NCBI GenBank assembly: GCA_002430735.1
Contig: DJCV01000013.1
Span: forward strand, 33,460-97,459
Length of the DNA: 64,000 nucleotides
Source: Candidatus Woesebacteria bacterium UBA5941
Lineage (GTDB): Bacteria; Patescibacteriota; Microgenomatia; UBA8517
Direction: 5' to 3'
Position numbers and translations under genes: made by a program
Notes under the pieces: model-generated
The model's database searches: none
What the model was told of the DNA's origin: nothing
Seen by the model: only the letters and a program-made list of their open reading frames with translations
Shown: in pieces, positions 4,472 through 33,906 of the stretch
Position numbering within the stretch: position 1 is the first letter of the stretch
Layout of the letters: each line of letters opens with the position of its first letter

Positions 4472-6948
<2,477 letters not shown>

Positions 6949-13784: not shown

Positions 13785-13938
13785 AGAACCACAAAATTAA
13801 TTTGCGTGCAAGTGCCTAACTCTAGTATTTTTTTGCCCAGAAAATCGGTTTTTCTCAATTGACAGTTTTCTTCCGTTTATGCTTCAATGAATGACTGAGT
13901 AGTGCCTATGCAAAAGCTACTCAATACCTACTTATTTC

Positions 13939-16900
13939 ATGCCTAACGACCTGCCCACCGAGCCTAAATACATCGCAATCCGCACAGCAGCCGAGTTTCT
14001 TGGAGTGTCAATTGATACATTACGTAGATGGGACAAGCAGGGCATTCTAAAGGCACAAAGACCGAACGGCAAAGATCGTGTTTTTCTGGTTAAAGACTTA
14101 GAGCGATTTAAGTACGCACATCCACTTCAGGTCTCCGAAGCTGCAGACCTTCTGGGCATGTCTATTTCGACATTAAGGCGTCTTGAGACACGAGGGAAGC
14201 TCGTTCCTAAGCGCGACAGTAATGGTAGGCGTATTTACAATTTTGCAGAGCTTGCACGATTCGCAAAAAATGTCCCTTCAGACAAAGTAGCTGTTACTCA
14301 ATCTGAGGTCAATATTTTAACCAAAGATGCGGTTGCGGCACGTATTGAGGTAGACACTATATTGCGCCGCGTACGACGAGTACGCAGTATTGTTGCTTCG
14401 CTAGCAATCTTTGTTGTAGTTTCTATTACAACCCTCACCGTACTCTTTTTGCTTTACCCATCAGAAACAGCAGATTTTTTTGAGCTCACTGAGCCAGAGT
14501 ATGTAAGCAATGGTGTTATTTTAAACAGGTCAGTGCTTGGGGTTGCCAATTCAAACGAAGCTTCTGGTATTACTCCTATTATTATTTCATTATTTAGGCC
14601 ACTTGCAAAGGTTTCTCTGAACCTTGTTGGTCAAATAGATGAAGAAAAGTATCAGATCGCCACGCGTTCACACATTATTGACGGAGATTCTCTGCTGCGG
14701 AGCATTAGCTCAATTGAGATAAGCGATTCATCAGACTTTATTATCACCGATACAAGTGTTATTCATAATTTGAATGCTGAGCTCCTTGACGGCCGACAGG
14801 TAGGATCTAACCCAGGTAACCTTGTCGTAATTGATGACAACGGAAAGATTAACCCTGATCTTATTGACTATTCGACAGTTGAGGTTGCATTCACAATTGA
14901 GGATAGAAGTATTGGTGGTGCTCAAATAGAACTCGATACGATCGAGAATGAAAATATCGCTAATAGTGCTATTACAAGCAATAAGATTGAAGATGGAACC
15001 GTGTCCTCAAGCGATCTTGCTGATAATGCAGTTATTACCGCAAAAATTGCGGATAATGCAATTACTGGCGCTAAAATTGATAATGGAACAATTACGACAT
15101 CCGACCTTTCAACAGGGCTTAGTTTTTCAAGTAGTACACTCATTGATTTGTCTGCCGTTACTCATACATCAACTACACCTCAAGGGTTAGTTCTCCCAAA
15201 TGCGTCCTCTGCAAATCCTTCTGGTCCTTCAACTGGGGAAGGGTATTTGGCCTGGGACACCTCTGGGAATCAGTTAATTGTTTATGATGGTGCCAGTTGG
15301 GGCACCCTCGCTGGAACAGGCGACATTACCGGAGTCACTGCCGGTTCAGGTGTAACCGGTGGTGGTGCAAGCGGTGGTGTAACAGTAAATGTTGGAGCAG
15401 GAAATGGAATTACAGTTAACGCGGATGATATTGCCATAAATTTGGCAACAAGTGGTACAACTGGGGGGTCTTCGAGTAACTCAGGTCTTGAAGTAGGTTC
15501 AGGAGGGCTCAGTTTGCTAAAAGGTTGTAGTGATAACCAGATATTAAAGTGGACTGACGCTGGAGGATGGGCATGTAGTAACGATACTGGCAGTGGCAGC
15601 ACTGTTTCTGTTGAAGAAGGCGATTCATCGGTGACAGCAACGCTTTCGACACTCGACTTTTTAGCAGCAGACTTTATTGTGCAAGAAAGTCCGTCTGGAG
15701 AAGCGAATATTAGTGTCGACTATGCAAATTCCGGTATTACTCGAGTCAATCAAGCGCAAGTTGTTACCGGGGGATGGACCTTTAATACTGCGGCAACAAC
15801 GTTTACCACCGATCTTATCGCCAATGGGGGTATTACGCTTGCAAGCGGTGAAACCATTTCAAACGGGAGCGATTCAACAATCACCTTAGGTCGAAATGAT
15901 GCTGGAACTGTTACATTAAATGCAAAAGATGATGATGCAACAGCAGCGTTAACCATTCTTCCAGGAGGAGCAGCTGCATTAACACTTGGAGGAAGCGCTA
16001 CCACCGGAATTACGCTCGTAACAGATTCAACGGGTGATAGTGAAGTGGTCTTGCCTGCCAGTTCAATTGGGAATAGTGAGTTGGTCAACTCAGGGCTGAC
16101 ATTTGCCGGAAACTCCGGAAGTGGAAGTGTTGCCTTGGGTGGAACATTTACTATTGTAGGGGCTGGCATTAATAATGCTGTATATTCTGGCGGCACAGTT
16201 ACCATTACTGGAACTGAAGCAGACACTTTGGCAAGTGTAACTGGTCGAGGAGCTACTTCATCGACAGCACTCACCTTATCTTCAACGAGCAATGCAATTA
16301 CTGTGGGAACACTCACTATCTCCGGTGATGCATTTACTGATTTAACAGGGACTGGACTTACTATTTCCGGTGGAGCGTTAAACACAACCCTCGGGGTTGC
16401 CATTGATAGTAGCGAGATTACCGATGCCACAATTGGAAATGGCGATATCGCAAATGACACAATTGATCTTGACAAAGTTTCAGACACATTAACACTCGAC
16501 GCTGCAACCTCAATTACCGCAAGCGGTGCGCTCGGCCTTACCATTGGAAACAATGTGACGCTTTCTGCAACAGGCACGGGAGCTATTGTTGCAACTGATC
16601 TCTCTTGTACCGACTGTATTACTTCAACAGAAATTAGTGAGCTCACATTAGGCACTGACACTGCTGGTAATTATGTGGCTACCGTAACTGGGGGGGCAGG
16701 ACTGACGGGTTCCGGGGCAAGCGAGGGATCCACTCCAACTCTGGCTGTTGGAGCTGGAAATGGTATTACGGCGAATGCAGATGACATTGCCGTTAACCTG
16801 ACATCAAGCGGAACAACGGGCTCGACTTCAAGTAACTCAGGCCTTGAAGTAGGAAGTGGAGGGCTCAGTTTATTAAAAGGCTGTAATGATAATGAAATTT

Positions 16901-19900
16901 TAAAGTGGACTGACGCAGGTGGGTGGGCGTGTGCAACTGACACCTCTGGGAGTGGATCAGCTGCCGTTCAAGAAGGAGACTCAGGGGTCGTCGCCTCACT
17001 TTCGACACTCGACTTTTTGGCAGCAGACTTTATCGTTAGCGAGAGTCCATCTGGTGAGGCAAATATTAGTCTTGATTATGCAAATTCAGGTGTCACCCGT
17101 GTCGGGCAAGCTGAAACAGTAACCGGTGGCTGGACGTTTAATACTGCGGCAACTACCTTCACTACAGCAATTGACGTAAACTCCGCATCAACGGTCGCAG
17201 GCTTAACGGTTGACGGAAACGGCAGCCTCTCTGTATCAAATGGTTCACTTGATGGGGCACTTTCTCTTTCAGGAACCACCAGCGATAATGGACTGCAAAT
17301 TGGTCTGACAAACGGAACAAGTGGAGGAACTCAAAACATTGCCTACTTTGATAATGCTGCATCGAGCGGTACTACTGAAAGCATTTTGGTTATTGATAAC
17401 AGTGATACTGACACCGCTGTTACGAATGCAATTGAATTTATAAATGCAGGTGGAGGTTTTACCAATCTGTTTAATGTCGCGGGGACAACTATTAGTTCTG
17501 GTGAGTTCACACTTCTCGATGGACGTGATACAGCACTTGTCGATACAACTGATGCTGTATCAACCGCTATTACTGGTACAGGCACATTAACTGCAGGGGC
17601 AACAGGAGCTGGATTTACCATTAACTTCGGAACATCAACTCTCTCGGGCAATATCACGGGAACTAATATCTCAGGTGTAGATATTTCAGATGATACTAAT
17701 CTTACGGTGACAAATGGCATTACTCTCACGGGCGATCAGTTGAGCCTTGCCTCAACTGCTGCCGGTGATGGATTGACCTACACAACAGGAGTACTCGCGA
17801 TTGGTTCAGGCGCGGGAATTACCGTTTCTGCTGATGCAATTGCGGCAACATTGGGCACTTCAATCGCGAATTCTGAAATCGACAACGATGCGATTGATTT
17901 TGATAAAGTGTCAGACACCTTAACGCTTGATGCTGCAACATCTATTACAGCGAGTGGTGCTTTGGGACTTACGATCGGTAACAATGTGACGCTTTCAGCA
18001 ACAGGTACAGGAGCCATTACTGCAACGGACCTTTCTTGTACTGACTGTATTGGTTCAGCTGAAGTCGGTGAGTTAACACTTGGCACAGACACCGCAGGAA
18101 ACTATGTAGCAACTGTTACAGGTGGAGCAGGACTCACCGGTTCAGGCTCAAGCGAAGGATCAACTCCAACCATCGCTGTTGGTGCAGGGAATGGAATTGC
18201 AGTTAACGCTGATGACATTGCCGTTAATCTCACATCAAGCGGCACAACTGGTTCTACTTCAAGCAATTCAGGGCTTGAAGTTGGAAGTGGAGGGTTAACC
18301 CTTCTTAAGGGGTGTAGTGATAATGAGCTCTTAAAGTGGACTGACGCAGGTGGGTGGGCGTGTGCCACTGATACTTCAGGAAGTGGTGCTGCTGCTGTTC
18401 AAGAAGGAGACTCAACCATTGTAGCCTCACTATCAACACTCGATTTCTTGGCAGCAGACTTTATTGTAGGAGAATCTCCATCAGGGGAAGGAAATATATC
18501 AATTGATTATGCAAATTCAGGAATTACCCGTGTGGGGCAAGCTGAGACAGTAACGGGTGGTTGGACGTTTAATACTGCATCCACAACATTCACTACTGCA
18601 ATTGATGTAAACACAGCTTCAACAATGGCTGGACTGACTGTTGATGGCAATGGTAACCTCTCTGTTTCAAATGGAACCATAGATGGAGCAATCTCACTCT
18701 CTTCTACAACCTCTGATAATGCGACTCAAATCACACTCACAAACGGCACGAGTAGCGGAACTCAAAATATTGCCTACTTTGATAATGCTGCTTCTACTGG
18801 AACAACCGAAAGCATTGTGGTTATTGATAACAGTGATAGTGATACGGCAGTGACGAATGCAATTGAATTTGTAAACGCTGGAGGCGGGTTCACCAATTTG
18901 TTTAATGTTGCAGGCACAACTATTTCAACCACAGAGTTTACGCTCCTTGATGGACGAGACACCGCTTTGGTTGATACAACTGATGCGGTTGCAACAGCAA
19001 TTACAGGAACTGGAACTTTAACTGCAGGTGCAACGGGAGCTGGGTTTACCATTAACTTCGGAACATCAACCCTTTCAGGCGACGTAACAAGCGCAAATAT
19101 TTCAGGGGTCGATATTAGTGCTGATACAAACCTTTCAGCCTCTAATGGAGTGACGTTAACAGGAGATGCATTAAGCTTGTCATCTGCAGCGGGTGGCGAT
19201 GGATTAACATACACAACAGGCGTACTTGCTGTTGGCGCAGGGACGGGTATTTCAGTTGCAGCTGATGCAATTTCTGCAACATTGGGCACTTCAATTGCCA
19301 ACGCTGAAATCGATGATGATGTCATTAATTTTGACAAAATTGCGAACGCGTTAACACTTGATGAAGGCACAACAATAACAGCGGGCGGTGCATTAGGGCT
19401 CACGATCGGTAACAACGTCACTTTGTCAGCTACCGGGACAGGAGCGATTACTGCAACAGACTTGTCATGTGCAGATTGTATTAACGGCACCGAAATTGGC
19501 GACTTAACATTAGGGACAGACACAGCTGGAAACTATGTTGCCACAATTACCGGTGGGGCAGGACTGACCGGTTCAGGTTCAAGTGAAGGTTCCACTCCAA
19601 CGCTCGCTGTTGGAGCAGGTAACGGAATTACAGTGAACGCAGATGACATTACGATTGCGTTAACCGGAAGCGGCACAACTGGTTCTACTTCAAGCAATTC
19701 AGGACTTGAAGTTGGTTCTGGTGGACTCAGTCTCTTAAAGGGTTGTACTGACACTGAAATATTAAAGTGGACCGATGCCGGAGGATGGGCCTGTGCTGCT
19801 GACGAAACAGGCGGGGGAGGTTTCACAAGCTTCACTGCTGCAGGAGACTCAGGTGGTGGTCAAACGATTTCTGACGGAAATTCGTTATCTATTTTAGGTG

Positions 19901-22422
19901 GAACAAATGGAATTGATACCGTTGATAGTGCAACTGATACCGTGACCTTAAACCTTGATACAACTGAAATTGGAACAACCACATTTGGATCAGGAAGCGG
20001 GATTACCTGGACGTTTAATGCAGGAGCAACGGACCCTGTAATTGCATTTGGATCAGATACCATCGACTTTACGGCAGGTACGACTACGCTCTCTGGGAAC
20101 CTCACCGTTTCAGGGGGAACAATTTTAGGTGTCGCGACCAGTAATTTGTTAAATTCAGTAACCACAACATTAAACTTTGCAGGAGCCGCTACAACGTTAA
20201 ACATTGCTGACGGTGCAACTACCAAAACGATTGATATCGGGGGCGTGACTGCTGATGGCACTGACACAATAAATATTGCAACAAATGCCACTTCTCCAGA
20301 TGTTATTTCAATTGGAAACGGGCATGGGGTATCAAGTATCGCGCTTACATCAGGTGACTCATGGGCAATTAGCGCGAATGGTGTAATGACTCTTTCTGCT
20401 GATTCATCACAAACCACGGCGATTGTTGCAACAGATACTGACTACACGAATTTTGCCTCAATTGGCGACAACAATATCATAGGGACAACTGCTGCAATTG
20501 ACCTTACAAACTTTGACGTTGCTTCAACCGGTGCGCTTACCTTGGTTGGCGGATTGTCTCCAGATATCACGACGCAGTCAAATAATAATTTGACTATTCA
20601 GCCAGGAGGGACTGGTGCAATTATATTTAATTCAAGTAATACTTCAGCGTCTGCAATCGACATTAATGCAACGGGTACCGTTGCCGGGAATGCGTTCACG
20701 CTTGATACTACCAACGGTGGTATTGCGCTCACTGCTGGTGGTGCTTCAAACGGGGATATTACGATTCTTTCAACTGATGACTTGAGTATAAATGGAACAG
20801 CAGGTTCTGTGGTCAATATTGGAACATCAGCGGTAGCTCAAACAATTGCAATTGGTGCTTCAAGTAACACTGACCTTGCACTTGCTGACGCACAATGGAG
20901 CATAACCGGTGCTGGGGTTGCAAGCTTTGTTTCAGGAACGGTACTCGGATCTCAAACATTTACAACAAATAACATCGTTGACAGCGGAGCTCTTACTATT
21001 AAATCAGCAACCGGAGCTAATGCCTTAACGCTTGATTCAGGGTCTACAGGAACGGTGAACCTTGGTACGAGCAACAATGCGAAAACTATTAATATTGGAA
21101 CGGGAACACAAGGGAATACTATTCTCATTGGAACAGACAATACCACCTCTGACACGATTACAATCGGTACTGCACTAGATAACGTTTCAATTGTGGGTGA
21201 CTCCTGGTCAATTACCGATGCGGGGGTTTTGACCGTAGCATCATGTAGTGGATGTGGAGGCGGTGGAGGAACGTTGCAACAGGCTTATAGCGGTGATGCT
21301 GACGGTAGTAATGCGATCATTTTAACTGACTCAACTGATGGATCTGTTATTATCCAAACCGTGGCTGGAACACAGTTCCAAGTTGCTGCAACTGCTGCTC
21401 CAACTGTTGACCTTGCTTCAATCACAAATGCTGGTCAAGGAGTCACAAGTACGAGTGGTGTTGACGGGTTATCAATAACCTATGTGCAAGCAACAGACGC
21501 AGGCGCCATCACCGGGAGTGGGCTCGATGTGACATTAACTCCTTCTGGAGACGCCTCAGACGTTATCCGTGGAATCACCCTTAACAACATAACCAGTGGA
21601 AGTTCAACAGAGACTGGTTTGTATGTGGGAACTGGGTATGATCGTGATATTGAATTTGCAGACAGTACCCCAACAATTAGATCAGCCGATGGTGCAGTAC
21701 TTTCATTCACCGATGGAACAAACACGATGGCTTCTATTAAAGACCAAGGGACTTATGCATTTTTAAACATCACTCCAAAAGGAACGGCATCCGATCCAGC
21801 GACTTGTGCTGTTGGTGATGTGTACGTAAATAGTAGTGACGCGACGATTAAAGCTTGTACCGGAACTGATACCTGGGAAGCACTCGATGGCGGTGGTGGA
21901 GGCGGAACTAAGGTTGTGACGTTACATCCAGAATTCCCAGGCGCAACCCTTACCGCCAACGGAAGTGCGACTATTAATGGAACCATGACCTCAGATGTTA
22001 CCGGAAGTGCTGATGGATGGAAGAATTTCTATGAATGGAATTCAAGTCAAACAAGTTTGCAAGACTATACCGTTGCTGTTCGGTTCAAACTTCCATCTGA
22101 CTTTTCATCGTGGGCTACTTCGAATGCCATTGTTGTTAATTATGTAACAGAATCAACAGCAAACACCAATAATAAAATTGATATCGATATTCGAAACGAA
22201 GACGATACCCCAGGAACGACCGTGACTACGTCTTCAGCAAATGTCTCAGGAGTTGCAGCAACATGGACATCCGTTGCCATTGATGACTCAGTAATTGACG
22301 ATGGTGCGGCACCGGACATTGACGCAGCGGGTGAGGACATCGTTTTGTTAATTAAGCTTTACTCAAAAGACTCAAATTACTCACGAGTTGGTGATATTGT
22401 CCTAACATATACTGCCCAATAA
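13939..22422 (+). CDS. Giant (2827-aa) membrane-tethered surface protein. It has two N-terminal cytoplasmic MerR/excisionase-type HTH domains, a single TM helix, tail-fibre-like motifs, 3.5 tandem repeats of about 475 aa, beta-helix-like G/T/S-rich repeats, and a C-terminal beta-rich domain.
   Basis: It is a single uninterrupted ORF. The HTH motifs are 'IRTAAEFLGVSIDTLRRWDKQGIL' and 'VSEAADLLGMSISTLRRLETRGKL'. The TM helix is 'IVASLAIFVVVSITTLTVLFLLY'. 'GYLAWDTSGNQLIVYDGASWGTL' resembles phage tail-fibre repeats. Repeating blocks include '...LKGC(S/N)DN(E/Q)ILKWTDAGGWAC...TLSTLDFLAADFIV.ESPSGE.NIS.DYANSG(I/V)TRV'. Confidence 0.85.
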   Translation: MPNDLPTEPKYIAIRTAAEFLGVSIDTLRRWDKQGILKAQRPNGKDRVFLVKDLERFKYAHPLQVSEAADLLGMSISTLRRLETRGKLVPKRDSNGRRIYNFAELARFAKNVPSDKVAVTQSEVNILTKDAVAARIEVDTILRRVRRVRSIVASLAIFVVVSITTLTVLFLLYPSETADFFELTEPEYVSNGVILNRSVLGVANSNEASGITPIIISLFRPLAKVSLNLVGQIDEEKYQIATRSHIIDGDSLLRSISSIEISDSSDFIITDTSVIHNLNAELLDGRQVGSNPGNLVVIDDNGKINPDLIDYSTVEVAFTIEDRSIGGAQIELDTIENENIANSAITSNKIEDGTVSSSDLADNAVITAKIADNAITGAKIDNGTITTSDLSTGLSFSSSTLIDLSAVTHTSTTPQGLVLPNASSANPSGPSTGEGYLAWDTSGNQLIVYDGASWGTLAGTGDITGVTAGSGVTGGGASGGVTVNVGAGNGITVNADDIAINLATSGTTGGSSSNSGLEVGSGGLSLLKGCSDNQILKWTDAGGWACSNDTGSGSTVSVEEGDSSVTATLSTLDFLAADFIVQESPSGEANISVDYANSGITRVNQAQVVTGGWTFNTAATTFTTDLIANGGITLASGETISNGSDSTITLGRNDAGTVTLNAKDDDATAALTILPGGAAALTLGGSATTGITLVTDSTGDSEVVLPASSIGNSELVNSGLTFAGNSGSGSVALGGTFTIVGAGINNAVYSGGTVTITGTEADTLASVTGRGATSSTALTLSSTSNAITVGTLTISGDAFTDLTGTGLTISGGALNTTLGVAIDSSEITDATIGNGDIANDTIDLDKVSDTLTLDAATSITASGALGLTIGNNVTLSATGTGAIVATDLSCTDCITSTEISELTLGTDTAGNYVATVTGGAGLTGSGASEGSTPTLAVGAGNGITANADDIAVNLTSSGTTGSTSSNSGLEVGSGGLSLLKGCNDNEILKWTDAGGWACATDTSGSGSAAVQEGDSGVVASLSTLDFLAADFIVSESPSGEANISLDYANSGVTRVGQAETVTGGWTFNTAATTFTTAIDVNSASTVAGLTVDGNGSLSVSNGSLDGALSLSGTTSDNGLQIGLTNGTSGGTQNIAYFDNAASSGTTESILVIDNSDTDTAVTNAIEFINAGGGFTNLFNVAGTTISSGEFTLLDGRDTALVDTTDAVSTAITGTGTLTAGATGAGFTINFGTSTLSGNITGTNISGVDISDDTNLTVTNGITLTGDQLSLASTAAGDGLTYTTGVLAIGSGAGITVSADAIAATLGTSIANSEIDNDAIDFDKVSDTLTLDAATSITASGALGLTIGNNVTLSATGTGAITATDLSCTDCIGSAEVGELTLGTDTAGNYVATVTGGAGLTGSGSSEGSTPTIAVGAGNGIAVNADDIAVNLTSSGTTGSTSSNSGLEVGSGGLTLLKGCSDNELLKWTDAGGWACATDTSGSGAAAVQEGDSTIVASLSTLDFLAADFIVGESPSGEGNISIDYANSGITRVGQAETVTGGWTFNTASTTFTTAIDVNTASTMAGLTVDGNGNLSVSNGTIDGAISLSSTTSDNATQITLTNGTSSGTQNIAYFDNAASTGTTESIVVIDNSDSDTAVTNAIEFVNAGGGFTNLFNVAGTTISTTEFTLLDGRDTALVDTTDAVATAITGTGTLTAGATGAGFTINFGTSTLSGDVTSANISGVDISADTNLSASNGVTLTGDALSLSSAAGGDGLTYTTGVLAVGAGTGISVAADAISATLGTSIANAEIDDDVINFDKIANALTLDEGTTITAGGALGLTIGNNVTLSATGTGAITATDLSCADCINGTEIGDLTLGTDTAGNYVATITGGAGLTGSGSSEGSTPTLAVGAGNGITVNADDITIALTGSGTTGSTSSNSGLEVGSGGLSLLKGCTDTEILKWTDAGGWACAADETGGGGFTSFTAAGDSGGGQTISDGNSLSILGGTNGIDTVDSATDTVTLNLDTTEIGTTTFGSGSGITWTFNAGATDPVIAFGSDTIDFTAGTTTLSGNLTVSGGTILGVATSNLLNSVTTTLNFAGAATTLNIADGATTKTIDIGGVTADGTDTINIATNATSPDVISIGNGHGVSSIALTSGDSWAISANGVMTLSADSSQTTAIVATDTDYTNFASIGDNNIIGTTAAIDLTNFDVASTGALTLVGGLSPDITTQSNNNLTIQPGGTGAIIFNSSNTSASAIDINATGTVAGNAFTLDTTNGGIALTAGGASNGDITILSTDDLSINGTAGSVVNIGTSAVAQTIAIGASSNTDLALADAQWSITGAGVASFVSGTVLGSQTFTTNNIVDSGALTIKSATGANALTLDSGSTGTVNLGTSNNAKTINIGTGTQGNTILIGTDNTTSDTITIGTALDNVSIVGDSWSITDAGVLTVASCSGCGGGGGTLQQAYSGDADGSNAIILTDSTDGSVIIQTVAGTQFQVAATAAPTVDLASITNAGQGVTSTSGVDGLSITYVQATDAGAITGSGLDVTLTPSGDASDVIRGITLNNITSGSSTETGLYVGTGYDRDIEFADSTPTIRSADGAVLSFTDGTNTMASIKDQGTYAFLNITPKGTASDPATCAVGDVYVNSSDATIKACTGTDTWEALDGGGGGGTKVVTLHPEFPGATLTANGSATINGTMTSDVTGSADGWKNFYEWNSSQTSLQDYTVAVRFKLPSDFSSWATSNAIVVNYVTESTANTNNKIDIDIRNEDDTPGTTVTTSSANVSGVAATWTSVAIDDSVIDDGAAPDIDAAGEDIVLLIKLYSKDSNYSRVGDIVLTYTAQ
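15300..19800 (+). repeat. Intragenic tandem direct repeats of about 1.35-1.43 kb, about 3.5 copies, inside the giant gene.
   Basis: The 'LKGC.DN.ILKWTDAGGWAC' block recurs at about nt 15525, 16870, 18305 and 19740. Copies 2 and 3 are about 85-90% identical at the protein level over about 475 aa. Confidence 0.8.
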
Positions 22423-22429
22423 ACGCCCC

Positions 22430-24184
22430 ATGAAGAAACTAATGAACATTATTTTTAAACAGGCAAAAAGAAGCTTTCGTTCCGTTCTTCAATGGTGGCG
22501 GCATCTTTCTAAACGAACGCAGTTGAGTTTGAGTCTCTTTGAACTTGCGATTGTGTTCTTCGTGCTGCCAAACATTCATGGTGGTTTGAAAATTTTGGGG
22601 TTTGTAGAGAAAGACTTTATCGTCTCAACATCTGGTGCACTGTATGAAACCAATAACAATCCTTATTTTCGTGCACTAATTGGTAGTAGTAGCGATACCA
22701 AACAGTCTATTCTGAAATTTGAAATACAAGGTAAAACAGTAACCATAGGACTTCTTGATGCTGCAGAAGAAGCACCGGTTGTGAAACTTGTTGATGTAAA
22801 TGAGACTCCTTCTAACCTTATTATCCCTGAATCGCTCATACATGCTGAGGCTGAACTTGCCTCAGCTGAAGCTGTGTTGCAAGAAATTGCGAATAAAACC
22901 TATGAGGTTAGCCAAGAGGTATCAGAGATTATTGGAGAAGCTGAGCAGACGTTTTTTGGCCCGCGCGAGCAGATTGTTTTAAGAGCAATTGAAAAAATAA
23001 ACAAAGTTACCTATTATCGGAAACAGAACGCTCTCATTGAGACGATAGAACTTGTAAACCCAGACATTGAAACACTTCACTTTGTAGTGAAATCTCCCGA
23101 CATTTCTGTTCGTAAAACTCGATTGCAAGATTGGAACTTAGTGAGTGAAGGGAATGGGCTCATGACCGTTAAAACGCACATGGTGGATGGTCGTGGTGCA
23201 GTCTCAGCGCTACCTGAGGTAGATAATGCATTTACTGAAAGCACTGATGACACTATTCACCATTTGCTTCTACCCGTTGAGTGGATGCAATCACCCTCTC
23301 GAGTGTTCCCTCTGAAAGTTGTCCGCACATTTGCTCCTCTTGAGCCAGTACATGACTCTCTCGAATCCAAGCTACAAAATATAGTTGGAGAACAGTTTGT
23401 AGAACTCTCACTATTTACGTCTCACAACCCGCGGTTCTTAACCCTTTTCAAGGGAGATGTTTTATATTGGGAAGCACTATCAGGCACTATTTCACTTATT
23501 CAAAATGGAAATACAATACCGCTTTTTACCGAGCCGTTACTGTCAGGGCTTTCATGCACTGATAATGGGTGTTTCGCAGCAAGGACAGATACCATTCAGT
23601 TTTTTAACCCAACAGACATACTAAATCGCTTGCCTGAATCAGATATCAACACATTTTTCGAAAGTTTAAAGGTTTCTGATACTCCACTTGGTGGAATCGC
23701 TGTTGGGAAAGGTACAATTCTTCGTACAAGCTATTCAAGTCCAACAGGAGCCGTATATGGATCAAGCACTTTTGGTGGTGTCGAAAATAAAGTATATGAA
23801 AATGTAAGTTTTCCGTCGTTTCCAGCGGTCAGTGAAGACGGGCAATATCGAAGTTTTTGGGCTGAAGGGAAGCTGTTTATAGGTGAGGCAAATAGCAACT
23901 GGCAAACCATTTCAATCCCATTTGAACCTGAGTCAGTTTCCATTGGAAATGACAACCGTGTTTATTTTATAGTTAAGTTTGATCCTTTGCAGACGGATAT
24001 GGTTGTGCGAGTGACACCAGGTTTGGGACTTGAGATTCTCTCACACGTTACCGGGGACTTTAGTTCACTTCATATCACGAATGACACTCTCTACCTTGGG
24101 TTGAATATAGATGAACGGAACGGAGCTGTTTTGAAATTGCCACAGAATATTTTGGCATGGAATCAATGGAATGAATATGAATAA
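22430..24184 (+). CDS. Hypothetical membrane-anchored protein (584 aa). It is in an operon with the giant protein, and its stop overlaps the next start.
   Basis: It is a long ORF. The N-terminal signal anchor is 'LSLSLFELAIVFFVLP'. It lies 8 nt downstream of the giant gene, and the stop/start overlap is atgaatatgaataa. Confidence 0.6.
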   Translation: MKKLMNIIFKQAKRSFRSVLQWWRHLSKRTQLSLSLFELAIVFFVLPNIHGGLKILGFVEKDFIVSTSGALYETNNNPYFRALIGSSSDTKQSILKFEIQGKTVTIGLLDAAEEAPVVKLVDVNETPSNLIIPESLIHAEAELASAEAVLQEIANKTYEVSQEVSEIIGEAEQTFFGPREQIVLRAIEKINKVTYYRKQNALIETIELVNPDIETLHFVVKSPDISVRKTRLQDWNLVSEGNGLMTVKTHMVDGRGAVSALPEVDNAFTESTDDTIHHLLLPVEWMQSPSRVFPLKVVRTFAPLEPVHDSLESKLQNIVGEQFVELSLFTSHNPRFLTLFKGDVLYWEALSGTISLIQNGNTIPLFTEPLLSGLSCTDNGCFAARTDTIQFFNPTDILNRLPESDINTFFESLKVSDTPLGGIAVGKGTILRTSYSSPTGAVYGSSTFGGVENKVYENVSFPSFPAVSEDGQYRSFWAEGKLFIGEANSNWQTISIPFEPESVSIGNDNRVYFIVKFDPLQTDMVVRVTPGLGLEILSHVTGDFSSLHITNDTLYLGLNIDERNGAVLKLPQNILAWNQWNEYE

Positions 24185-27100
24185 GAAAAAATCAGTGTTC
24201 GCAGTATTACTTGTCATAGTGTTTATGGTTTCCTCCATGGGATTGCCACAACTTGTGTTATTTCAATCCCTCCAGAAGCCACTCCCGAAAACTCTTGAAA
24301 GAGCTCCAGAAGCAAAAGCTGAAAATGCGTACATTTCAGCTACAGCGTCAGTTACTACTGGAATACAAACCAATCATCATTCCTATACTCAGATAGCAGA
24401 TACCTTTGACTGGAGAATACTCACGACCGCTTCAGGACTCGATGCAACGGTAACATTCTCAAATGTTGCGCTGAATAGTGCCAACGTATTGTATGTGAAC
24501 TACAACGGGTCAGCTTCATCCGCATCATTAACGTACGAAATTCAGATTCGTGATTTTACTGCAGGCACATGGAGAACCATTAACCCACATGCAACAACGC
24601 TGGCCAACGTAACCGACCAGGCCGCCGGGCTTTTGTATCAGCCGACTGCTGCGGTTGCTGGAATGGGGCAGATCGCAATTTATGATGGATACTTTAGTAA
24701 TGGAAGCAACTCACCAGTTTCAATCCCATTGTCTGACTTTGTAAATGATAGTAATGAAGTGCAAATTCGATTCCTATCAGCCACAGTGACACCGAATCTT
24801 GAAATGCGTATTGATTATTTGTCTGTTGAACCAGCAATAGAAAACATGAAATATGCATCTTCTATGACAACTGCAGCAGGCACCGTTTCCAATGAATATA
24901 ACGATACAACAACAGACGACAATACAACAAACTTATCTATTGCGGCGACCGCAAGTGGTATTGACACATATTTGTCGTTTACGAACATGCCAACCCCGTA
25001 CACCGGGGCGAACGTTATTTTGGTGGAATATTCAGGAAATGATGACGCGTCACTTTCTGATTACAGTATTCAAGTCCGTGATTTCACTAACGGCCAATGG
25101 GATACGTTAAACGGAACTGTTTTAAATAGCGCAACTGATACCACCCATTACTTTGCAACTTCAACAGCACAAGCTGTTACAGACTATATCTCAGGAAATG
25201 AAATTCGGATTCGGTTTGTTTCAACTGATACGTCGGGTACTTTAAATATTGATTTTGCTCGAGTGACTATTGGGTCAGTCATGACTAATACAGGATTTTA
25301 TATAGATGAAATTAGTAGGGGATCTGTTTCAAGTGGAAGTGAAACAAACATGCAAACCATTGATACAACGTCAGCTGCATCTAGCTGGGTTCTTTCAACA
25401 AGTGCTTCAGATGTCACCGCAACAACCCAGTATCCAGGTGACTGTAATGCGGCTACTAATAACTGTGTTGGGGTAAATTTACAGCTTCCAGTAACTGTTC
25501 CTTCAAACACGATGGTAACCGGTGTGCACACTATGTTTCGATACAACACTTCAAGCGCAAACATCGATATGGAGTTTGGGATACGGAATGTGATGAATGG
25601 AAATATGGCGGTGACAACTGCTGTTGCCGATGAAACATCTCTTCAGTCGATGCGAAGGGAGTTAAGCTATCCAATGCCTCCACAAGTTGGAACAGACCCT
25701 TTGGTAACAGTTCCTGTGTATGAGCCCGAGTATTATGTAAACACAATAAACGATGCAATTAATTTTTATGCTCGATCTGCAGCTTCGTCGGCAAGTGGAA
25801 CGCTCACTCTTGATTTTGTCTTTGTCTCAATACGATATTTAGGCCCTTATAAAAGTGTGAGTAACAGATGGGTGCCTACTGGTGCAACGATTACAAACGG
25901 AACAAACAACGCCTCAAACTTTAGGTATGCAAACAGGGATGACTCAAACTATTATTCAGTTACTCCTAGTGGTAGTGGTACTGATTATTACTTGTCTTTC
26001 TCGAACGTTGAGATACCAACAAATGCCAATAAAATTATTATTGACACCCGCGCCCGTTCAAGCGCAGCTTCTCAAACGTATGAAATATATCTTTACGACT
26101 TTGTGAATACGACGTGGAGGGAAGTTACTCCGCATAGTACGAATTACACTTCTGATGGTACGCTAAGCACCGAGGAGTTAGTTCAAGTGGAAGTGTACGA
26201 TGGGTATTTTAGTAACGCGAGCGATGCACCTGTTTCAACGCCAATTTCAAATTTTGTGAGTTCTTCACAAATGCGTGTGCGATACGTAATGGCAAGTACA
26301 ACTAATCGTTTAGAGATTGATTGGGTAAATGTAGAGATTGCAAATGACCCGGTTTATTTTGCTGCAGATTCAACGATTACCAACGGAACTATTACAAATG
26401 AATATAATGATACAACGACAGATGATGCAACAACGAGTTATACAATTACAAATTCAAGCGGAATTGATTTTTACCTATCATTTAAAAATGTGTTGACTCC
26501 GCCCACGGGAGCGGATACTGCGTATTTACATGTGTCATCGCATATGACTGCAGGCGCAGGAAGTTATACTATTTCACTTTACAACTTTAATACAACGAGT
26601 TGGGTCCCATTTAATGGAACGGTATTAACACACACTTCCGATCGAACTGATTACTACTTCCTCAACATTTCTAATTGGGCTCATTATATTAGCGGTAACG
26701 AAATGCGCGTAAGGTTCAACTCAGCTTCAGCAGGAGGGACTATTGTTGTCGATTATGCCAAGCTAGCTCTTGGGTCTGTAACAAATAGTACCGTGGGACA
26801 AACAATTGATCTTGGAGGAACATATGTAAACTCATATTCAGAAACTGCAACACTTGATACCAGTAACTTTGTAGCACTTGAAAATTCATGGGGTATTCGC
26901 AGTCATCCAAACACGCAGTCTGCAGAGGCACTAGAAGCTCCAGCCTCAATTGCATTGACAGTGAATTATCCACTCACCGTACCGACGAATGTGTATCCTT
27001 CAGGCATCATTTGGGCAATGAAAGGGTCTAGTAATGCGACAACTATTTCACCAACTGTGTCATTTACCAATACAAAAATCGGTACTCGAGTTGCGACAAA

Positions 27101-27335
27101 TGCGCGAGGGGTAACGCTTGCTCTCAATGCACTCCCGAACGCGGGTGATTTAGGAACGTTTGCTTCAACAACCGAAGTTATGAGAGAAGGGTGGTTTATC
27201 GAAAACACGGCGAATGCTCTTTTGAACGAACAAAATATGGTTCAAATGCGTATTAGAACAACTGCTTCTACGCTCTTAGGCCCTGCATATTTTATGATTG
27301 ATGCAGGGTTTGTAGCTTTAAGGTACGCTGAATAA
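24171..27335 (+). CDS. Large secreted repeat protein (1054 aa). It has a signal peptide and four beta-rich modules of about 160 aa of two alternating types.
   Basis: The signal peptide is 'KKKSVFAVLLVIVFMVSSMG'. Type-A modules carry 'YEIQIRDF..W' and 'YDGYFSNGS..PVS.P.S.FV'. Type-B modules carry 'NEYNDTTTDD.TT...SGID.YLSF.N' and 'YISGNE.R.RF'. It is dense in N-x-S/T sequons. Confidence 0.7.
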   Translation: MNMNKKKSVFAVLLVIVFMVSSMGLPQLVLFQSLQKPLPKTLERAPEAKAENAYISATASVTTGIQTNHHSYTQIADTFDWRILTTASGLDATVTFSNVALNSANVLYVNYNGSASSASLTYEIQIRDFTAGTWRTINPHATTLANVTDQAAGLLYQPTAAVAGMGQIAIYDGYFSNGSNSPVSIPLSDFVNDSNEVQIRFLSATVTPNLEMRIDYLSVEPAIENMKYASSMTTAAGTVSNEYNDTTTDDNTTNLSIAATASGIDTYLSFTNMPTPYTGANVILVEYSGNDDASLSDYSIQVRDFTNGQWDTLNGTVLNSATDTTHYFATSTAQAVTDYISGNEIRIRFVSTDTSGTLNIDFARVTIGSVMTNTGFYIDEISRGSVSSGSETNMQTIDTTSAASSWVLSTSASDVTATTQYPGDCNAATNNCVGVNLQLPVTVPSNTMVTGVHTMFRYNTSSANIDMEFGIRNVMNGNMAVTTAVADETSLQSMRRELSYPMPPQVGTDPLVTVPVYEPEYYVNTINDAINFYARSAASSASGTLTLDFVFVSIRYLGPYKSVSNRWVPTGATITNGTNNASNFRYANRDDSNYYSVTPSGSGTDYYLSFSNVEIPTNANKIIIDTRARSSAASQTYEIYLYDFVNTTWREVTPHSTNYTSDGTLSTEELVQVEVYDGYFSNASDAPVSTPISNFVSSSQMRVRYVMASTTNRLEIDWVNVEIANDPVYFAADSTITNGTITNEYNDTTTDDATTSYTITNSSGIDFYLSFKNVLTPPTGADTAYLHVSSHMTAGAGSYTISLYNFNTTSWVPFNGTVLTHTSDRTDYYFLNISNWAHYISGNEMRVRFNSASAGGTIVVDYAKLALGSVTNSTVGQTIDLGGTYVNSYSETATLDTSNFVALENSWGIRSHPNTQSAEALEAPASIALTVNYPLTVPTNVYPSGIIWAMKGSSNATTISPTVSFTNTKIGTRVATNARGVTLALNALPNAGDLGTFASTTEVMREGWFIENTANALLNEQNMVQMRIRTTASTLLGPAYFMIDAGFVALRYAE

Positions 27336-27345
27336 CCTGAAACAT

Positions 27346-30300
27346 ATGGCACTCAAAAAGAAAAAATTCATACTCTCAATTGTTTTAAGTTGTGCAATGA
27401 CTGCTCAATCGTGGCATTTACCGTATTTAATTTTAAACGAGGCACCACAGACACGGGAGCTTGCACAAAAATTACGTCCGAATGAAGTTTCAAGTGCAGA
27501 CGCTCGATTTCAGTTCCAGCCAACAACGACAACAGTGACTACAGCAAAAGGCACGACAGGGGATCATCTAGCGGTAGGTGCCGCTGATAATCTATATATG
27601 TATGCCACAAGCTCCGATTCAGGGCTCGACATCTCGTTTACTTTTAATAATGTTCGATTGTGGAGCGCGAACGCTATTCGTGTTTTCTATGATGGGTTTG
27701 CGAGCTCAGCATCACTTACATATGAGATTCAAATTCGGGATTATGTAAATAGTACCTGGCGAAATATTAATCCCCATGAGGCCACAAATACAAATACTGC
27801 TGACTCAACACTTGCAGGATCTCTTTCATCAGTTGCTGCAAATTTACCAGGTGGAGGAGTGATTGATATTTATGATGGTTACTTTAGTAATGGCAGTAAC
27901 ACTCCAGTTGCGACGCCGCTTTCTAATTTTGTAAACAGTGACAAGCAAATGCAAATTAGGTTTTATTATGCAGGTTCCACTGAGAACCTTCAGTTAGCAA
28001 TTGATAATATTACGATTCAACCATCTCAACTTCCATATTATTACCCATCAAGCTCAACAAAAAACAGTACTGGCGCACAGACAAATGAATATAATGATTT
28101 AACAACAGATGACGCGACAACAAGCATGACTTTTGCAGGAGCAGTTGGAGGGATTAGCAATGATTTTTACTTCACCAATGTGAGCCTCCCGTACTCTGAT
28201 GCAAATACATTCTTAATTGAGTACTCCGGCCATATTTCTACCTCTAACTACTCAATAGCAATATATGACTATAACGATGCAGAATATCAGACATTAAATG
28301 GAGCAGTGCTCACAAACACATCCGATGCTACCAATTACTTTGCTCTTGTGCCGGCTGCCAACAGCGACGCGATGGAAGACTTTATTGATGAGGCAAACAA
28401 TAATCGAATGAATATTAGGGTGACTTCCCCAACTACAAGCGGGACCCAAACAATCGATTTTTTAAAGCTTGTTATCGGTTCCACTCACACAAATACCGGT
28501 GACTATATAGCTGCGATTACTAGAGGAACAACTTCATCAGGAACTGAGGCAAATGTGAGGAATTTAGATACCTCAAATACGATTTCCCAATGGGTGTTGA
28601 ACGCGACGACATCAGAACAAGACACGGAGAGCTCTGGGGATTGTACAACTATCACTGGGTATTGTGTGGCAATGCAAGTAACAGTACCAGTTACAGTTTC
28701 TGCTCAAAATATTGTGCAATCGGTTATCCAATATGGTCGATTTAACACAAACAACGCAGACTCGGATCCACTCATGGCTGTGCGGGATGTTGCAGGGAGT
28801 TATGATGCAACTACCTCCTCAACAAACATGACGGCCGCGGCTATGGTTATTCGCGAAACCAACAACCCAATGCCTCAGCAAGTAGGATATGCAGCCCTTG
28901 CCGCTGTTCCTGCATTCACTCCAAACTCCTACGTTCGCAAAAGTTATAACTCTATGTCTATGCGTATTTATACCCCTGCTGCAGCTGCGGCACGAACCAT
29001 GAGTGTTGATTTCGCCTTTATGACGATTACACTGGTAACTCCACTTGAGCGTGAGGTGTACCGGAAAGTGCCATCAGGGGGTACTATTACTGCCGGCACT
29101 GAGACCAACTCGAATTATCGGTTTACCCAGGGAGATGATGCTGTAAACTGGGATTTAAACCCGAATGGTACAACTGGTACTGATGTCTATGTGTCTTTTA
29201 ACGACACGACAATTCCAACTGGTTCAAATAAGTTAATTATAACGAGTAACCATCGATGGGATGTTAATTCGGCAAGTTACGAAATGTATATTTATGATTT
29301 CGTTACAGACACATGGCGTGATATGTCGCCTCATGAGACGAATTTTACACACGACGCGACTGCTGCTAATTATGACTACATACAGCTTGAGATATTTGAC
29401 GGATATTTCAGTAATGGAAGTGGGACCCCTGTTTCAACACCATTATCAAACTTTGTTGAAAATGGGGAAGTGCGCGTCCGTATGTTATCTGCGTCAACTA
29501 CCGCGGATCTTGATTGGGATTTTGCCCAAATTCAATTCGTGATTGATCCATCGTATCTTCCTGCTGACATTGTAACAACCACAGGAACAGAGGCCAATGA
29601 ATATACTGATCTTTTTACTGATGACAACACAACGAACTTAACCTTAACCCCTTCTGGGAACGCGGTTGACTCATATTTGACGTTTGCGAATGTCGTGATG
29701 CCTCCTGAAGGCTTTAATGCGCTATTTGTAGAGTTTACTGGATGGAAGACAACCTCTGGCACAATCAACCTAAACTTACGCAATTTTACAACTGGCTCGT
29801 GGGAACCAATTAAGACAGGTGCCTCAATCGTTGCGCGTGCGACTCATTATTATGTCGTTGAGATAGGCGATTGGAGTAACTATATCGATTCGAATAACCA
29901 CATGCGGGTACAAATAACATCAGCAGCGAGTGCGACCGTTGTGAATCTTGATTTTATTCAAATCACTATGGGAATGGTTCCCAAGGCGGATACCCCCGTT
30001 ACGGCAAATTACGGGGCTATTATGAATGGAACCGCTGCAAGCTTGGGTAATATTGACACTATCTCAAGCACTGATGAATTGAACGGTGCTAATTACTTAA
30101 CTATTACTGAGTCAAACGCTACAACCGGGATTCCAGCCCATGACACCATGGGGGGAAAATCATTACAAGTTGATTTTCCTTTCCACGTTGACCCTGGAAC
30201 ATATCCAGTTGGGCTCATTTGGAATTATCGGGCTGCGTCACACACAACAGTTGTCGTAACACCTACTATTGAGACAGGTGGATTTAACTATCAATCACTT

Positions 30301-30624
30301 AACACAAGCTTTTTATATACGTTGCTTGCCGCGAATGCTATGGCTGCGACCTCTGACACTGCAGTTTTAACCTCGACAACACAAGCCTTTCGACAGGGTT
30401 GGTTCGTAGAACCACTAGCAAATTTATGGGATAGCGTTGATAACAGATTGAAATTTAGACTTGCGACTACAACAGGACTTGTGAATGCAGAGTGGGATTT
30501 GAGCGTGGACTTTGTGTTTTTGTCGTATCGATGGGTACCATTTGAGATAACTCCTAACCCCGAGCAACAAATGCGCGGAGGAACCTTTTTCTTTGGTGGT
30601 GATGAGCAGAAGAAGTCATTTTGA
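27346..30624 (+). CDS. Paralogue of the preceding secreted repeat protein (1092 aa) with the same A-B-spacer-A-B-C-terminus architecture.
   Basis: The signal peptide is 'KKKFILSIVLSCAMTAQS'. Conserved 'YEIQIRDYVNSTW', 'YDGYFSNGSNTPVATPLSNFV' and 'NEYNDLTTDDATTS' are present. The shared C-terminal motif is 'FRQGWF.E..AN'. Confidence 0.7.
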   Translation: MALKKKKFILSIVLSCAMTAQSWHLPYLILNEAPQTRELAQKLRPNEVSSADARFQFQPTTTTVTTAKGTTGDHLAVGAADNLYMYATSSDSGLDISFTFNNVRLWSANAIRVFYDGFASSASLTYEIQIRDYVNSTWRNINPHEATNTNTADSTLAGSLSSVAANLPGGGVIDIYDGYFSNGSNTPVATPLSNFVNSDKQMQIRFYYAGSTENLQLAIDNITIQPSQLPYYYPSSSTKNSTGAQTNEYNDLTTDDATTSMTFAGAVGGISNDFYFTNVSLPYSDANTFLIEYSGHISTSNYSIAIYDYNDAEYQTLNGAVLTNTSDATNYFALVPAANSDAMEDFIDEANNNRMNIRVTSPTTSGTQTIDFLKLVIGSTHTNTGDYIAAITRGTTSSGTEANVRNLDTSNTISQWVLNATTSEQDTESSGDCTTITGYCVAMQVTVPVTVSAQNIVQSVIQYGRFNTNNADSDPLMAVRDVAGSYDATTSSTNMTAAAMVIRETNNPMPQQVGYAALAAVPAFTPNSYVRKSYNSMSMRIYTPAAAAARTMSVDFAFMTITLVTPLEREVYRKVPSGGTITAGTETNSNYRFTQGDDAVNWDLNPNGTTGTDVYVSFNDTTIPTGSNKLIITSNHRWDVNSASYEMYIYDFVTDTWRDMSPHETNFTHDATAANYDYIQLEIFDGYFSNGSGTPVSTPLSNFVENGEVRVRMLSASTTADLDWDFAQIQFVIDPSYLPADIVTTTGTEANEYTDLFTDDNTTNLTLTPSGNAVDSYLTFANVVMPPEGFNALFVEFTGWKTTSGTINLNLRNFTTGSWEPIKTGASIVARATHYYVVEIGDWSNYIDSNNHMRVQITSAASATVVNLDFIQITMGMVPKADTPVTANYGAIMNGTAASLGNIDTISSTDELNGANYLTITESNATTGIPAHDTMGGKSLQVDFPFHVDPGTYPVGLIWNYRAASHTTVVVTPTIETGGFNYQSLNTSFLYTLLAANAMAATSDTAVLTSTTQAFRQGWFVEPLANLWDSVDNRLKFRLATTTGLVNAEWDLSVDFVFLSYRWVPFEITPNPEQQMRGGTFFFGGDEQKKSF

Positions 30625-33678: not shown

Positions 33679-33906
33679 TTGATACAGTGCCTACACATGG
33701 CTGAGAAGAAAGCGCTTGATTTAAAAAATTTACCAGACCTACTCACAGTGAGGGAGGTTGCAGAAGTACTTCGTGTATCACCGCTCACGATCAAAAGATG
33801 GGGAAAGAAGGGTATTTTGCCTCCAATTCGTATTAATTCACGGGGAGATAGACGATATAAAAAGGAAGCTGTCCTTTGGAAATTAGGTATTACTTCTGAA
33901 AGTTAA
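33679..33906 (+). CDS. Small MerR/excisionase-type (HTH_17-like) DNA-binding protein.
   Basis: 'LLTVREVAEVLRVSPLTIKRWGKKGIL...GDRRY' matches the HTH family found twice at the N-terminus of the giant protein. The likely true start is the internal MAEKK methionine. Confidence 0.65.
   Translation: MIQCLHMAEKKALDLKNLPDLLTVREVAEVLRVSPLTIKRWGKKGILPPIRINSRGDRRYKKEAVLWKLGITSES

Follow-up and report, generated by a model that had tools for sequence, protein, structure and literature searches.

The stretch of DNA described here comprises 64,000 nucleotides of contig DJCV01000013.1 from Candidatus Woesebacteria bacterium UBA5941 and is referred to below, in its whole length, as the window. It carries an open reading frame (ORF) for a giant single-pass membrane protein, which starts with two tandem helix-turn-helix (HTH) domains of the MerR/excisionase type, continues through one transmembrane (TM) helix and ends in an enormous fibre. 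Just upstream of the gene lies a 28-bp dyad element, newly described in this analysis, which recurs in front of related genes. The bacteria of the candidate phyla radiation (CPR), or Patescibacteria, make up a large share of bacterial diversity and live attached to hosts, with tiny genomes and few recognisable regulators; we know of no account of how they perceive attachment and react to it. The features discussed in this work are collected in Table 1.

Table 1. Features of the giant gene and its surroundings, in positions of the window.
Feature	Position	Strand	Basis or remark
Promoter-like boxes: TTGACA (13859-13864), 18-nt spacer, TG-preceded TTCAAT (13883-13888)	13859..13888	+	Read from the sequence, plus a dedicated scan
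28-bp operator-like dyad, CCTATGCAAAAGCTACTCAATACCTACT	13905..13932	+	Best weight-matrix match in the window
Coding sequence, predicted single-pass membrane protein (tandem HTH, TM helix, giant fibre)	13939..22422	+	2,827 residues
HTH1 (residues 11-60), minimal MerR/excisionase-type winged HTH, recognition helix region LGVSIDTLRRWD	13969..14118	+	Pfam, NCBIfam, AlphaFold2, Foldseek
HTH2 (residues 62-111), second winged HTH, recognition helix region LGMSISTLRRLE	14122..14271	+	Pfam, AlphaFold2, Foldseek
Basic juxtamembrane stretch RRVRRVR (residues 143-149), cytoplasmic side	14365..14385	+	Sequence
Single TM helix (residues 151-173), type II signal anchor, N-terminus inside	14389..14457	+	Hydropathy; lies inside AlphaFold2 helix 121-172
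Ectodomain (residues 174-2827), acidic, nine Cys pairs	14458..22419	+	Composition, repeat analysis
Ecto-side motif V199-L200-G201	14533..14541	+	L200 and G201 invariant in alignment A1
Tail-fibre-like segment (residues ~302-422, ~120 residues), includes NLNAELLDG	14842..15204	+	PHROGs
Three tightly packed ORFs (584, 1,054 and 1,092 residues) with hydrophobic N-terminal signal/anchor segments	22430..30624	+	Gaps or overlaps of at most 8 nt between some neighbours
Free-standing small MerR/BldC-like HTH ORF, likely start ATG 33697	33679..33906	+	Pfam, NCBIfam

The giant ORF begins with the first start codon (ATG) past an in-frame stop at about 13903 and has no internal stops. Both HTH motifs that the original prediction had quoted are found in it, and the tandem MerR/excisionase-type pair that had been proposed for its N-terminus passes profile searches in Pfam and NCBIfam and has its fold reproduced by modelling. 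Within the first 200 residues, two stretches are matched by each of the Pfam families MerR (PF00376, E 3.6e-23, 81.5 bits against a cut-off of 28.2), MerR_1 (E 1.6e-18) and HTH_17 (PF12728, E 4.8e-16, 59.2 bits against 27), and the NCBIfam model TIGR01764, named 'excise', is passed with 38.3 bits against 28.8. AlphaFold2, run on residues 1-330 with a 7-sequence alignment and confident for the HTH units and the TM helix only, models HTH1 and HTH2 as two beta-alpha-alpha-beta-beta-alpha winged units, with a per-residue confidence (pLDDT) of about 75-85; its confidence extends neither to the way in which the two units face each other nor to the juxtamembrane domain. When these units are compared with the PDB by Foldseek, the matches are exclusively MerR-type winged HTHs. 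The best single-unit fits are BldC (TM-score 0.80-0.85, root-mean-square deviation 1.2-2.0 A), the DNA-binding domain of RacA (E 1.3e-3) and mycobacteriophage Xis (0.76 for Pukovnik Xis), and MtaN, BmrR, CueR and NmlR are matched as well. The two units are non-identical, HTH1 bearing the signature RRWD and HTH2 the signature TLRRLE.

The segment assigned to the TM helix has a Kyte-Doolittle hydropathy of 2.56, whereas the runner-up in the whole protein reaches 1.55, and it is followed on its C-terminal side by the acidic PSETADFFELTEPE. On the N-terminal side of the helix, Lys and Arg make up 20% of the residues and Cys is absent; on the C-terminal side, of 2,651 residues, Lys and Arg fall to 1.8%, Asp and Glu amount to 10%, and all 18 Cys of the protein are found. 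This asymmetry in charge, Cys and composition points to a type II orientation, and these features indicate a cytoplasmic HTH pair and an extracellular fibre. Hydropathy, charge and Cys distribution thus agree with the basic stretch, the one TM helix and the more than 2600 extracellular residues that had been predicted. The topology argument draws mainly on the window protein's own charges, its Cys asymmetry and the types of ectodomain; across the family described below, there are 0.098 Cys per 100 residues on the N-terminal side of the helix and 0.551 on the C-terminal side.

A protein of this kind could also be an artefact, that is, a fusion produced by a frameshift or a mis-assembly, or a prophage excisionase joined to a tail fibre, since its HTHs are of the excisionase type and part of its ectodomain matches tail-fibre families of PHROGs. 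However, the identical 2,827-residue product is encoded on at least nine independently assembled contigs from JGI, ENA and NCBI sources, two of them of about 942 kb and probably representing the whole genome, and for this reason an assembly artefact is rejected: no frameshift separates the HTH part from the TM helix and ectodomain, and the single ORF that had been predicted is real. The same fusion moreover occurs in more than 120 distinct representatives. A search of 2.9 million viral contigs gave four weak, HTH-only matches to the family, and the upstream neighbours of the gene are cell-envelope genes, encoding a PEGA protein, MreB (about 2.3 kb upstream), a WecG/TagA glycosyltransferase and UppS. 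A phage or prophage origin is rejected on this near-absence from viral contigs together with the cellular neighbours, and we consider the probability of any such artefact to be practically negligible.

The ectodomain is rich in Gly, Ser, Thr and Ala (52%), and its 18 Cys form nine close pairs with none left over. A Cys-loop motif, LLKGC.D..ILKWTDAGGWAC, is found at residues 526, 978, 1455 and 1932, with a period of about 477 residues. The sequence of the ectodomain has no match in Pfam, NCBIfam or the PDB; its sole match is to the PHROGs tail fiber proteins phrog_28766 (E 1.6e-8) and phrog_892 (E 2.9e-6). It is presumably a disulfide-looped, partly tail-fibre-like fibre that serves as an adhesin. 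Close to the membrane, at 20-45 residues outside the TM helix, every subfamily has an [SAE]VL[GSA] motif whatever its ectodomain, including the variants VLS and VLA; examples are loci L020-L035, L034 and L072 and protein P0008. This motif may be a processing or sorting signal. Two other TM-anchored proteins of the window, encoded at 31683-32417 and 32493-33233 and unrelated to the family, have NPSVLG or NPSVMG directly after their TM helices.

The original prediction knew of no characterised precedent for this architecture. Homologous architectures were found in hundreds of Patescibacteria loci, with relatives at 456 or more genome loci, all in Patescibacteria metagenome-assembled genomes (MAGs) as labelled in the records, among them Daviesbacteria, Levyibacteria, Woesebacteria, WWE3, Saccharibacteria and Andersenbacteria. 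A number of small MAGs with a family gene bear the label 'uncultured Gammaproteobacteria bacterium' (L002, L003, L014, L017 and others; one example is the 915-kb chromosome OZ246414.1), and these labels are probably taxonomic errors. The relatives come from a scan of one genome per species, of which 80 loci were kept (L001-L080; 1.14 Mb in total); in these, nearly all family ORFs have two HTHs followed by one TM helix at residues 140-260. Complete ORFs in these loci have 284 to 3,497 residues, and many of more than 3,400 run past the edge of the locus. When 1.84 billion representatives were searched exhaustively with a profile, 209 proteins passed E<=1e-30 and 654 passed E<=1e-10, the longest having 5,145 residues. 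When the 150 best profile matches and three proteins from an earlier search were analysed together, 144 of the 153 proved to have two HTHs, no more and no fewer, and in 124 the HTHs were followed by exactly one TM helix, while outliers had three, eight (four HTH1-HTH2 pairs) or 14 units. P0008 (623 residues) places its four pairs before the TM helix, P0105 (1,015 residues) has 14 units without a TM helix, and the HTH copy number also varies in P0004.

What follows the TM helix is much more variable, as the ectodomains range from about 100 residues (SH3b) to more than 5,000. In the short members, a Pro/Ser/Thr linker is combined with a bacterial SH3 domain (SH3_3, E 9.5e-12); collagen-like repeats occur in one member, and others have fibres related to that of the window. 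Because the same HTH-TM module is joined to SH3b and to other ectodomains, the fibre appears as one interchangeable passenger among several. Contrary to this, the recognition-helix regions are conserved at 80% or more over 206 sequences, as LGVSIDTxRRWD in HTH1 and SxxTLRRLE in HTH2; the HTH1 motif is nearly invariant in 75 loci, and two paralogues of one MAG share their HTH signatures. Judging from the alignments, the conserved unit is made of HTH1-HTH2, a linker of 30-100 residues, the TM helix and the short ecto motif. Full-text literature searches, including the transposon-sequencing paper on the saccharibacterium Southlakia, returned no description of the family or of the 28-bp element. 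The claim of novelty holds for characterised members, as none was found, and has to be restricted with regard to the architecture in general, as TM proteins with MerR, MerR_1 or HTH_17 domains already appear in a census of transmembrane transcription regulators (PMC10269533). On its sequences, then, this is a large, undescribed and Patescibacteria-specific family.

Reading the regions upstream of the family genes revealed the dyad, whose consensus is CCTATGCATTGGTTAAtCAATGCATAGG, a near-palindrome with the half-sites CCTATGCA and TrCmTAGG. The copy in the window ends 6 nt before the ATG and has a canonical left half and a degenerate right half. It reaches 16.1 bits, the top weight-matrix score on both strands of the 64 kb, whereas a 0.5-Mb shuffle control contained no match of 12 bits or more, and the pattern CCTATGCAN9CAATNCNTA has this single match in the window against 0.03 expected by chance. 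The second-ranked weight-matrix match, CCTCAGGATTGGTTTACTAATGCAAAGC at 57168-57195 on the plus strand (14.0 bits), lies inside an ORF without a family match (56997-57500, 167 residues), 388 nt upstream of the next gene, and could be either a chance occurrence or a second site.

Across the 80 loci, 43 strict matches were counted (at most two mismatches in the 16 outer positions), 32 of them no more than 150 nt upstream of a family gene, and the weight matrix places 46 sites within that distance in 44 of the loci. In Microgenomates-type loci, the element mostly ends 5-6 nt before the ATG in front of both SH3b-type and giant members, whereas in WWE3 and Saccharibacteria loci it stands 25-143 nt upstream (60-143 nt in the Saccharibacteria type). 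Column identity within it is 79% (1.24 bits per column), compared with 42-45% (0.2 bits) in the flanks, taken as 40 nt before and 20 nt after. The association was also found in the opposite direction: a metagenome scan with the DNA motif only yielded 46 loci, and a tandem-HTH ORF stands just downstream, mostly at 5-7 nt, in 34 of the 44 that were assessable, though many of these matches are near-identical and come from related samples, so that the 34 are not independent. The other metagenome sites precede other proteins, mostly membrane or secreted ones, or no ORF. Element and family gene are hence associated both ways.

Several arrangements of the element deserve separate mention. At L099, a perfect copy (6635-6662) stands 6 nt before the gene of a 195-residue membrane protein with a family-like N-terminus (MPKSLPKHK) and no HTHs, which looks, from its sequence, like a family gene that has lost the DNA-binding module and kept the operator. 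Multiple copies spaced 350-630 bp apart precede the family gene at L016 (3134, 3688 and 4321) and L021 (8500, 8858 and 9385), those of L021 being interleaved with tRNA-Arg and tRNA-Pro genes on the opposite strand, and L096 has two copies 445 nt apart. At L051 and L073, TGCATAGG forms direct repeats 21 nt apart. The three-HTH members L076 and L105 stand behind the most perfect palindromes. Many family genes begin with ATGCCTA (Met-Pro; 13939-13945 in the window), which resembles an extra half-site TGCCTA 6 nt past the element, and the conserved Met-Pro may therefore partly reflect a constraint at the DNA level.

Upstream of the element, the promoter-like boxes of the window match 10 of 12 consensus positions, and 16 nt separate the end of the -10 box from the element; a stricter promoter scan of the window did not call TTGACA-N18-TTCAAT. 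Among 47 family loci, 45 have a TTGACA-like -35 box no more than 80 nt upstream of the element, and the element starts 15-44 nt downstream of a -10-like box across loci. As it begins downstream of that box, the element would be part of the transcribed leader.

This location raises the alternative that the palindrome acts as an RNA hairpin in the 5' untranslated region, occluding an AGG Shine-Dalgarno sequence and controlling translation independently of the HTHs. It would agree with the position of the element behind the promoter-like boxes, with the gap of 5-6 nt that separates it from the ATG at most loci and with a right arm that ends in TAGG. Yet pairing in the 12-bp hairpin, scored over 43 distinct sites, amounts to 72.3%, compared with 71.4% for column-preserving shuffles, of which 113 of 500 scored as high, and covariation of pairing in the same sites is not significant (43 of 500 shuffles reach the observed value). 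Variable positions are unpaired in about half of the sequences, and the sites of the SH3b subfamily keep their sequence while pairing poorly. The folding of the window leader does not differ significantly from shuffles either (z -1.7). In Saccharibacteria-type loci, the distance to the start codon argues against a common hairpin over the ribosome-binding site, as do the extra copies far upstream and the direct-repeat arrangements of some loci. The lack of covariation, the spaced extra copies, the variable distance in Saccharibacteria and the poor leader fold favour a protein-binding site over a hairpin, which we regard as a very unlikely explanation and disfavour on its shuffle-level pairing and non-significant fold.

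Taking the dyad as a protein-binding site, we infer that its binder is the HTH pair itself, and the giant protein would then be a membrane-tethered autoregulator, a reading that we judge to have slightly better than even chances. According to it, the HTH pair would bind the candidate dyad between promoter and start codon of the family genes, and the surface protein, while anchored in the membrane, would thereby feed back on how its own gene is transcribed. This action would extend to the genes of paralogues, given how little the recognition helices and the operator vary. The effect of binding would probably be repression, given a site that follows the -10 box. As a speculation, an action in cis during coupled transcription and translation would be physically plausible, since the HTHs come first in the nascent chain and the operator is about 40 bp from the start codon. 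The original prediction of a membrane-tethered regulator in the ToxR/CadC style is thus supported in its first part, in a real but indirect way, by the conserved architecture and the operator-like dyad in the leaders; the second part fails where descent is concerned, as no match to Trans_reg_C, the OmpR/PhoB-type domain, was obtained at E<=0.01.

Several points weigh against this autoregulator. The copy of the element in the window is degenerate, with 16 of a possible 45 bits, and the full element is absent from 34 of the 80 loci, although half-sites are still enriched 22-fold upstream of the gene there (2.51 versus 0.11 per kb), which speaks in favour of the reading. The relatedness of the metagenome samples lowers the weight of the motif-first scan. 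Because the HTHs and the site both hardly vary, covariation between them carries no information. The site has the form of an inverted repeat, yet the two HTHs are non-identical and fused head-to-tail, and BldC, whose fold is the closest, binds direct repeats (PMC5859096). Another DNA-binding protein could be the binder, such as the product of the BldC-like ORF at 33679-33906. In the family as a whole, the two sides of the TM helix show a weak bias in charge (+1.37 before, +0.76 after). Finally, a function of the element as RNA is possible, given that it is transcribed and that the TAGG of its right arm probably serves as the Shine-Dalgarno sequence too.

An extension of the autoregulator, which we hold to be doubtful, would make it dependent on a signal. 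The fibre would act as a sensor of contact or load, and binding to the host would either alter the clustering of the HTH pairs or trigger their release through cleavage near VLG and subsequent intramembrane proteolysis, following a logic that would resemble those of ToxR/CadC, RsgI or Notch. The DNA-binding domain with its N-terminus inside, the single TM helix and the variable ectodomain are the layout of a transmembrane regulator; the juxtamembrane motif persists in all subfamilies regardless of the ectodomain; and the ectodomains are adhesin-like in their diversity (SH3b, collagen-like, tail-fibre-like). However, neither a protease gene nor evidence of cleavage was found, paralogues with different ectodomains have identical recognition helices, unlike arrays of sensors that each serve their own target, and the leader of the gene itself is the only strong site in the 64 kb. 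At a similarly low probability, a shared circuit may be imagined. Each exported adhesin or fibre would carry, or leave behind after cleavage near VLG, a cytoplasmic tandem-HTH stub that binds one and the same 28-bp operator before every family gene, and the cell would count its fibres, or sense load or clustering upon contact with the host, and re-programme their expression. Such a circuit, if true, would be a bacterial analogue of Notch-type signalling from adhesion to transcription in obligate epibionts.

The HTH pair might also not be a transcription factor at all, but a tether between DNA or nucleoid and envelope, as in RacA, or a binder of a cytoplasmic protein such as MreB, as in RodZ, with the palindrome being read by some other factor. 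In line with this, the RacA DNA-binding domain is among the top Foldseek matches, mreB lies close by, with PEGA-mreB-WecG synteny in five loci, and invariant recognition helices would suit a universal ligand. Contrary to these points, the RacA model of NCBIfam is matched with 16 bits against a cut-off of 170, no HTH_25 or DUF4115 signal is seen, the mreB synteny recurs in just 5 of the 80 loci, and the two-way link between element and family gene would be left unexplained. We therefore consider this possibility unlikely, and somewhat more so than a signal-dependent regulator.

Apart from the giant gene and its leader, the window contains further genes of interest. The free-standing HTH ORF, described in the original prediction as a paralogue of the same HTH, passes the MerR_1, HTH_17 and MerR models of Pfam. 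Its HTH type is thus as predicted, but it is only a distant relative: phmmer aligns it with HTH1 alone (E 6.8e-6; no match to HTH2), and BldC resembles it more than either unit does, even though its 40 bits against the BldC family NF033787 stay below the 77-bit cut-off. A homologue with 77% identity occurs in L003, and the weight-matrix scan of the window places no 28-bp element upstream of the ORF. The gene directly after it, at 33983-34903, encodes a protein of 306 residues that combines a signal peptide and a 7TM_transglut domain (E 2.8e-21) with a linker rich in Pro and Thr. The proteins with NPSVLG and NPSVMG mentioned above are tandem paralogues of 244 and 246 residues with an N-terminal TM helix and a weak LytR_C match. 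Relatives of these proteins are encoded near the HTH-TM gene in about 20 of the 80 loci, and at position 17769 of L014 a full 28-bp element stands 50 nt upstream of a gene of this kind; this protein family may be a co-regulated partner of the HTH-TM gene.

The three packed ORFs that follow the giant gene probably share a surface-protein operon with it. They match no family in Pfam, NCBIfam or PHROGs other than a weak match to GH114_assoc, and no homologues of them were found in any of the 80 related loci, so the group looks like a lineage-specific surface operon. A putative second large adhesin of the window is the N-terminally anchored protein of 1,441 residues encoded at 42834-47159, which has four PA14 domains (E 2.2e-81) and a GLEYA-like match, and no HTH module.

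If the proposed binding holds, surface proteins of this family may control their own genes from the membrane. What the analysis offers is a family-wide and physically direct link of giant surface fibres to DNA-binding domains, together with a defined candidate operator, which makes for a concrete and cheaply testable regulatory circuit. In practical terms, the HTH-HTH-TM module provides an N-terminal signature for finding CPR surface proteins, and the DNA motif a marker for their genes. Were the signal dependence true as well, this would represent a new bacterial way of coupling adhesion with transcription.

Among known systems, the closest layout is that of ToxR, TcpP and CadC, which like the giant protein have an N-terminal cytoplasmic DNA-binding domain, one TM helix and an extracytoplasmic C-terminal part, and which bind DNA while anchored in the membrane. 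They differ in having an OmpR-type Trans_reg_C domain instead of a fused pair of minimal MerR/Xis-like winged HTHs, and a compact periplasmic sensor instead of an SH3b domain or a fibre of up to more than 5,000 residues. The family described here is further set apart by a putative operator in the leader of the protein's own gene, by its restriction to Patescibacteria and by its having no characterised member. Transmembrane transcription regulators have been defined operationally as proteins that combine a predicted DNA-binding domain and at least one TM segment, in the census cited above (PMC10269533). The giant protein has both, and its activity as a regulator at a promoter or operator is a candidate one, suggested indirectly by the conserved leader dyad. 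Of the 50,302 regulators that this census counts, 386 have MerR, 350 MerR_1 and 151 HTH_17 domains, and the text parts of its supplement that were covered do not mention Patescibacteria (PMC10269533).

The N-terminal winged HTH is common to the giant protein and the classical MerR regulators. In the latter, however, it is followed by a C-terminal coiled-coil dimerisation helix and an effector domain, whereas in the giant protein HTH2 comes directly after HTH1, then a linker modelled with low confidence and the TM helix, and no effector domain was detected in Pfam or NCBIfam. The classical MerR operator occupies a 19-20-bp spacer between the -35 and -10 boxes, unlike the candidate element, which lies downstream of the -10-like box. 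BldC and Xis come closer in structure, being units of about 50 residues with the same fold as the family HTHs and without coiled coil or effector domain; they are single units, while the family has two different ones in one membrane-tethered chain, and the HTH pair, with 19.4 bits against a cut-off of 77, does not reach the BldC family NF033787. BldC binds AT-rich direct repeats head-to-tail, with about one unit per helical turn, whereas RacA, TnrA/GlnR and the classical MerR proteins bind palindromes as symmetric dimers (PMC5859096). The giant protein passes the domain models of the excisionase family, but is not associated with an integrase or mobile element, given its envelope neighbours and the near-absence of its family from viral contigs.

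Two MerR-type HTHs in one polypeptide, forming a covalent pseudo-dimer, are also known from the 'fused homodimer type' of HspR (NF047377). The giant protein scores 37 against the cut-off of 300 of this model, and HspR is a soluble heat-shock repressor without TM helix or ectodomain. RacA, the chromosome anchor of B. subtilis, likewise uses a MerR-like winged HTH to link DNA to the cell envelope, but it is a peripheral protein and relies on DivIVA and a coiled coil; the sites that it recognises, as a symmetric dimer, are GC-rich palindromes (PMC5859096). The score of the giant protein in the RacA equivalog NF009648 is 16.4 bits, with a cut-off of 170.

RodZ combines a cytoplasmic HTH, a TM helix and an extracellular domain, and its HTH binds MreB rather than DNA. 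The giant protein resembles it in the succession of HTH, basic juxtamembrane stretch, single TM helix and ectodomain, and in the proximity of mreB; RodZ is nevertheless built from an Xre-type HTH_25 and a DUF4115, neither of which was detected by Pfam in the giant protein. Phage tail fibres and giant adhesins, finally, are similar to the ectodomain in composition, repeats and PHROG matches. Contrary to the phage tail fibres, the giant protein is chromosomal and cellular, and its fibre is preceded by an N-terminal signal anchor that bears DNA-binding domains.

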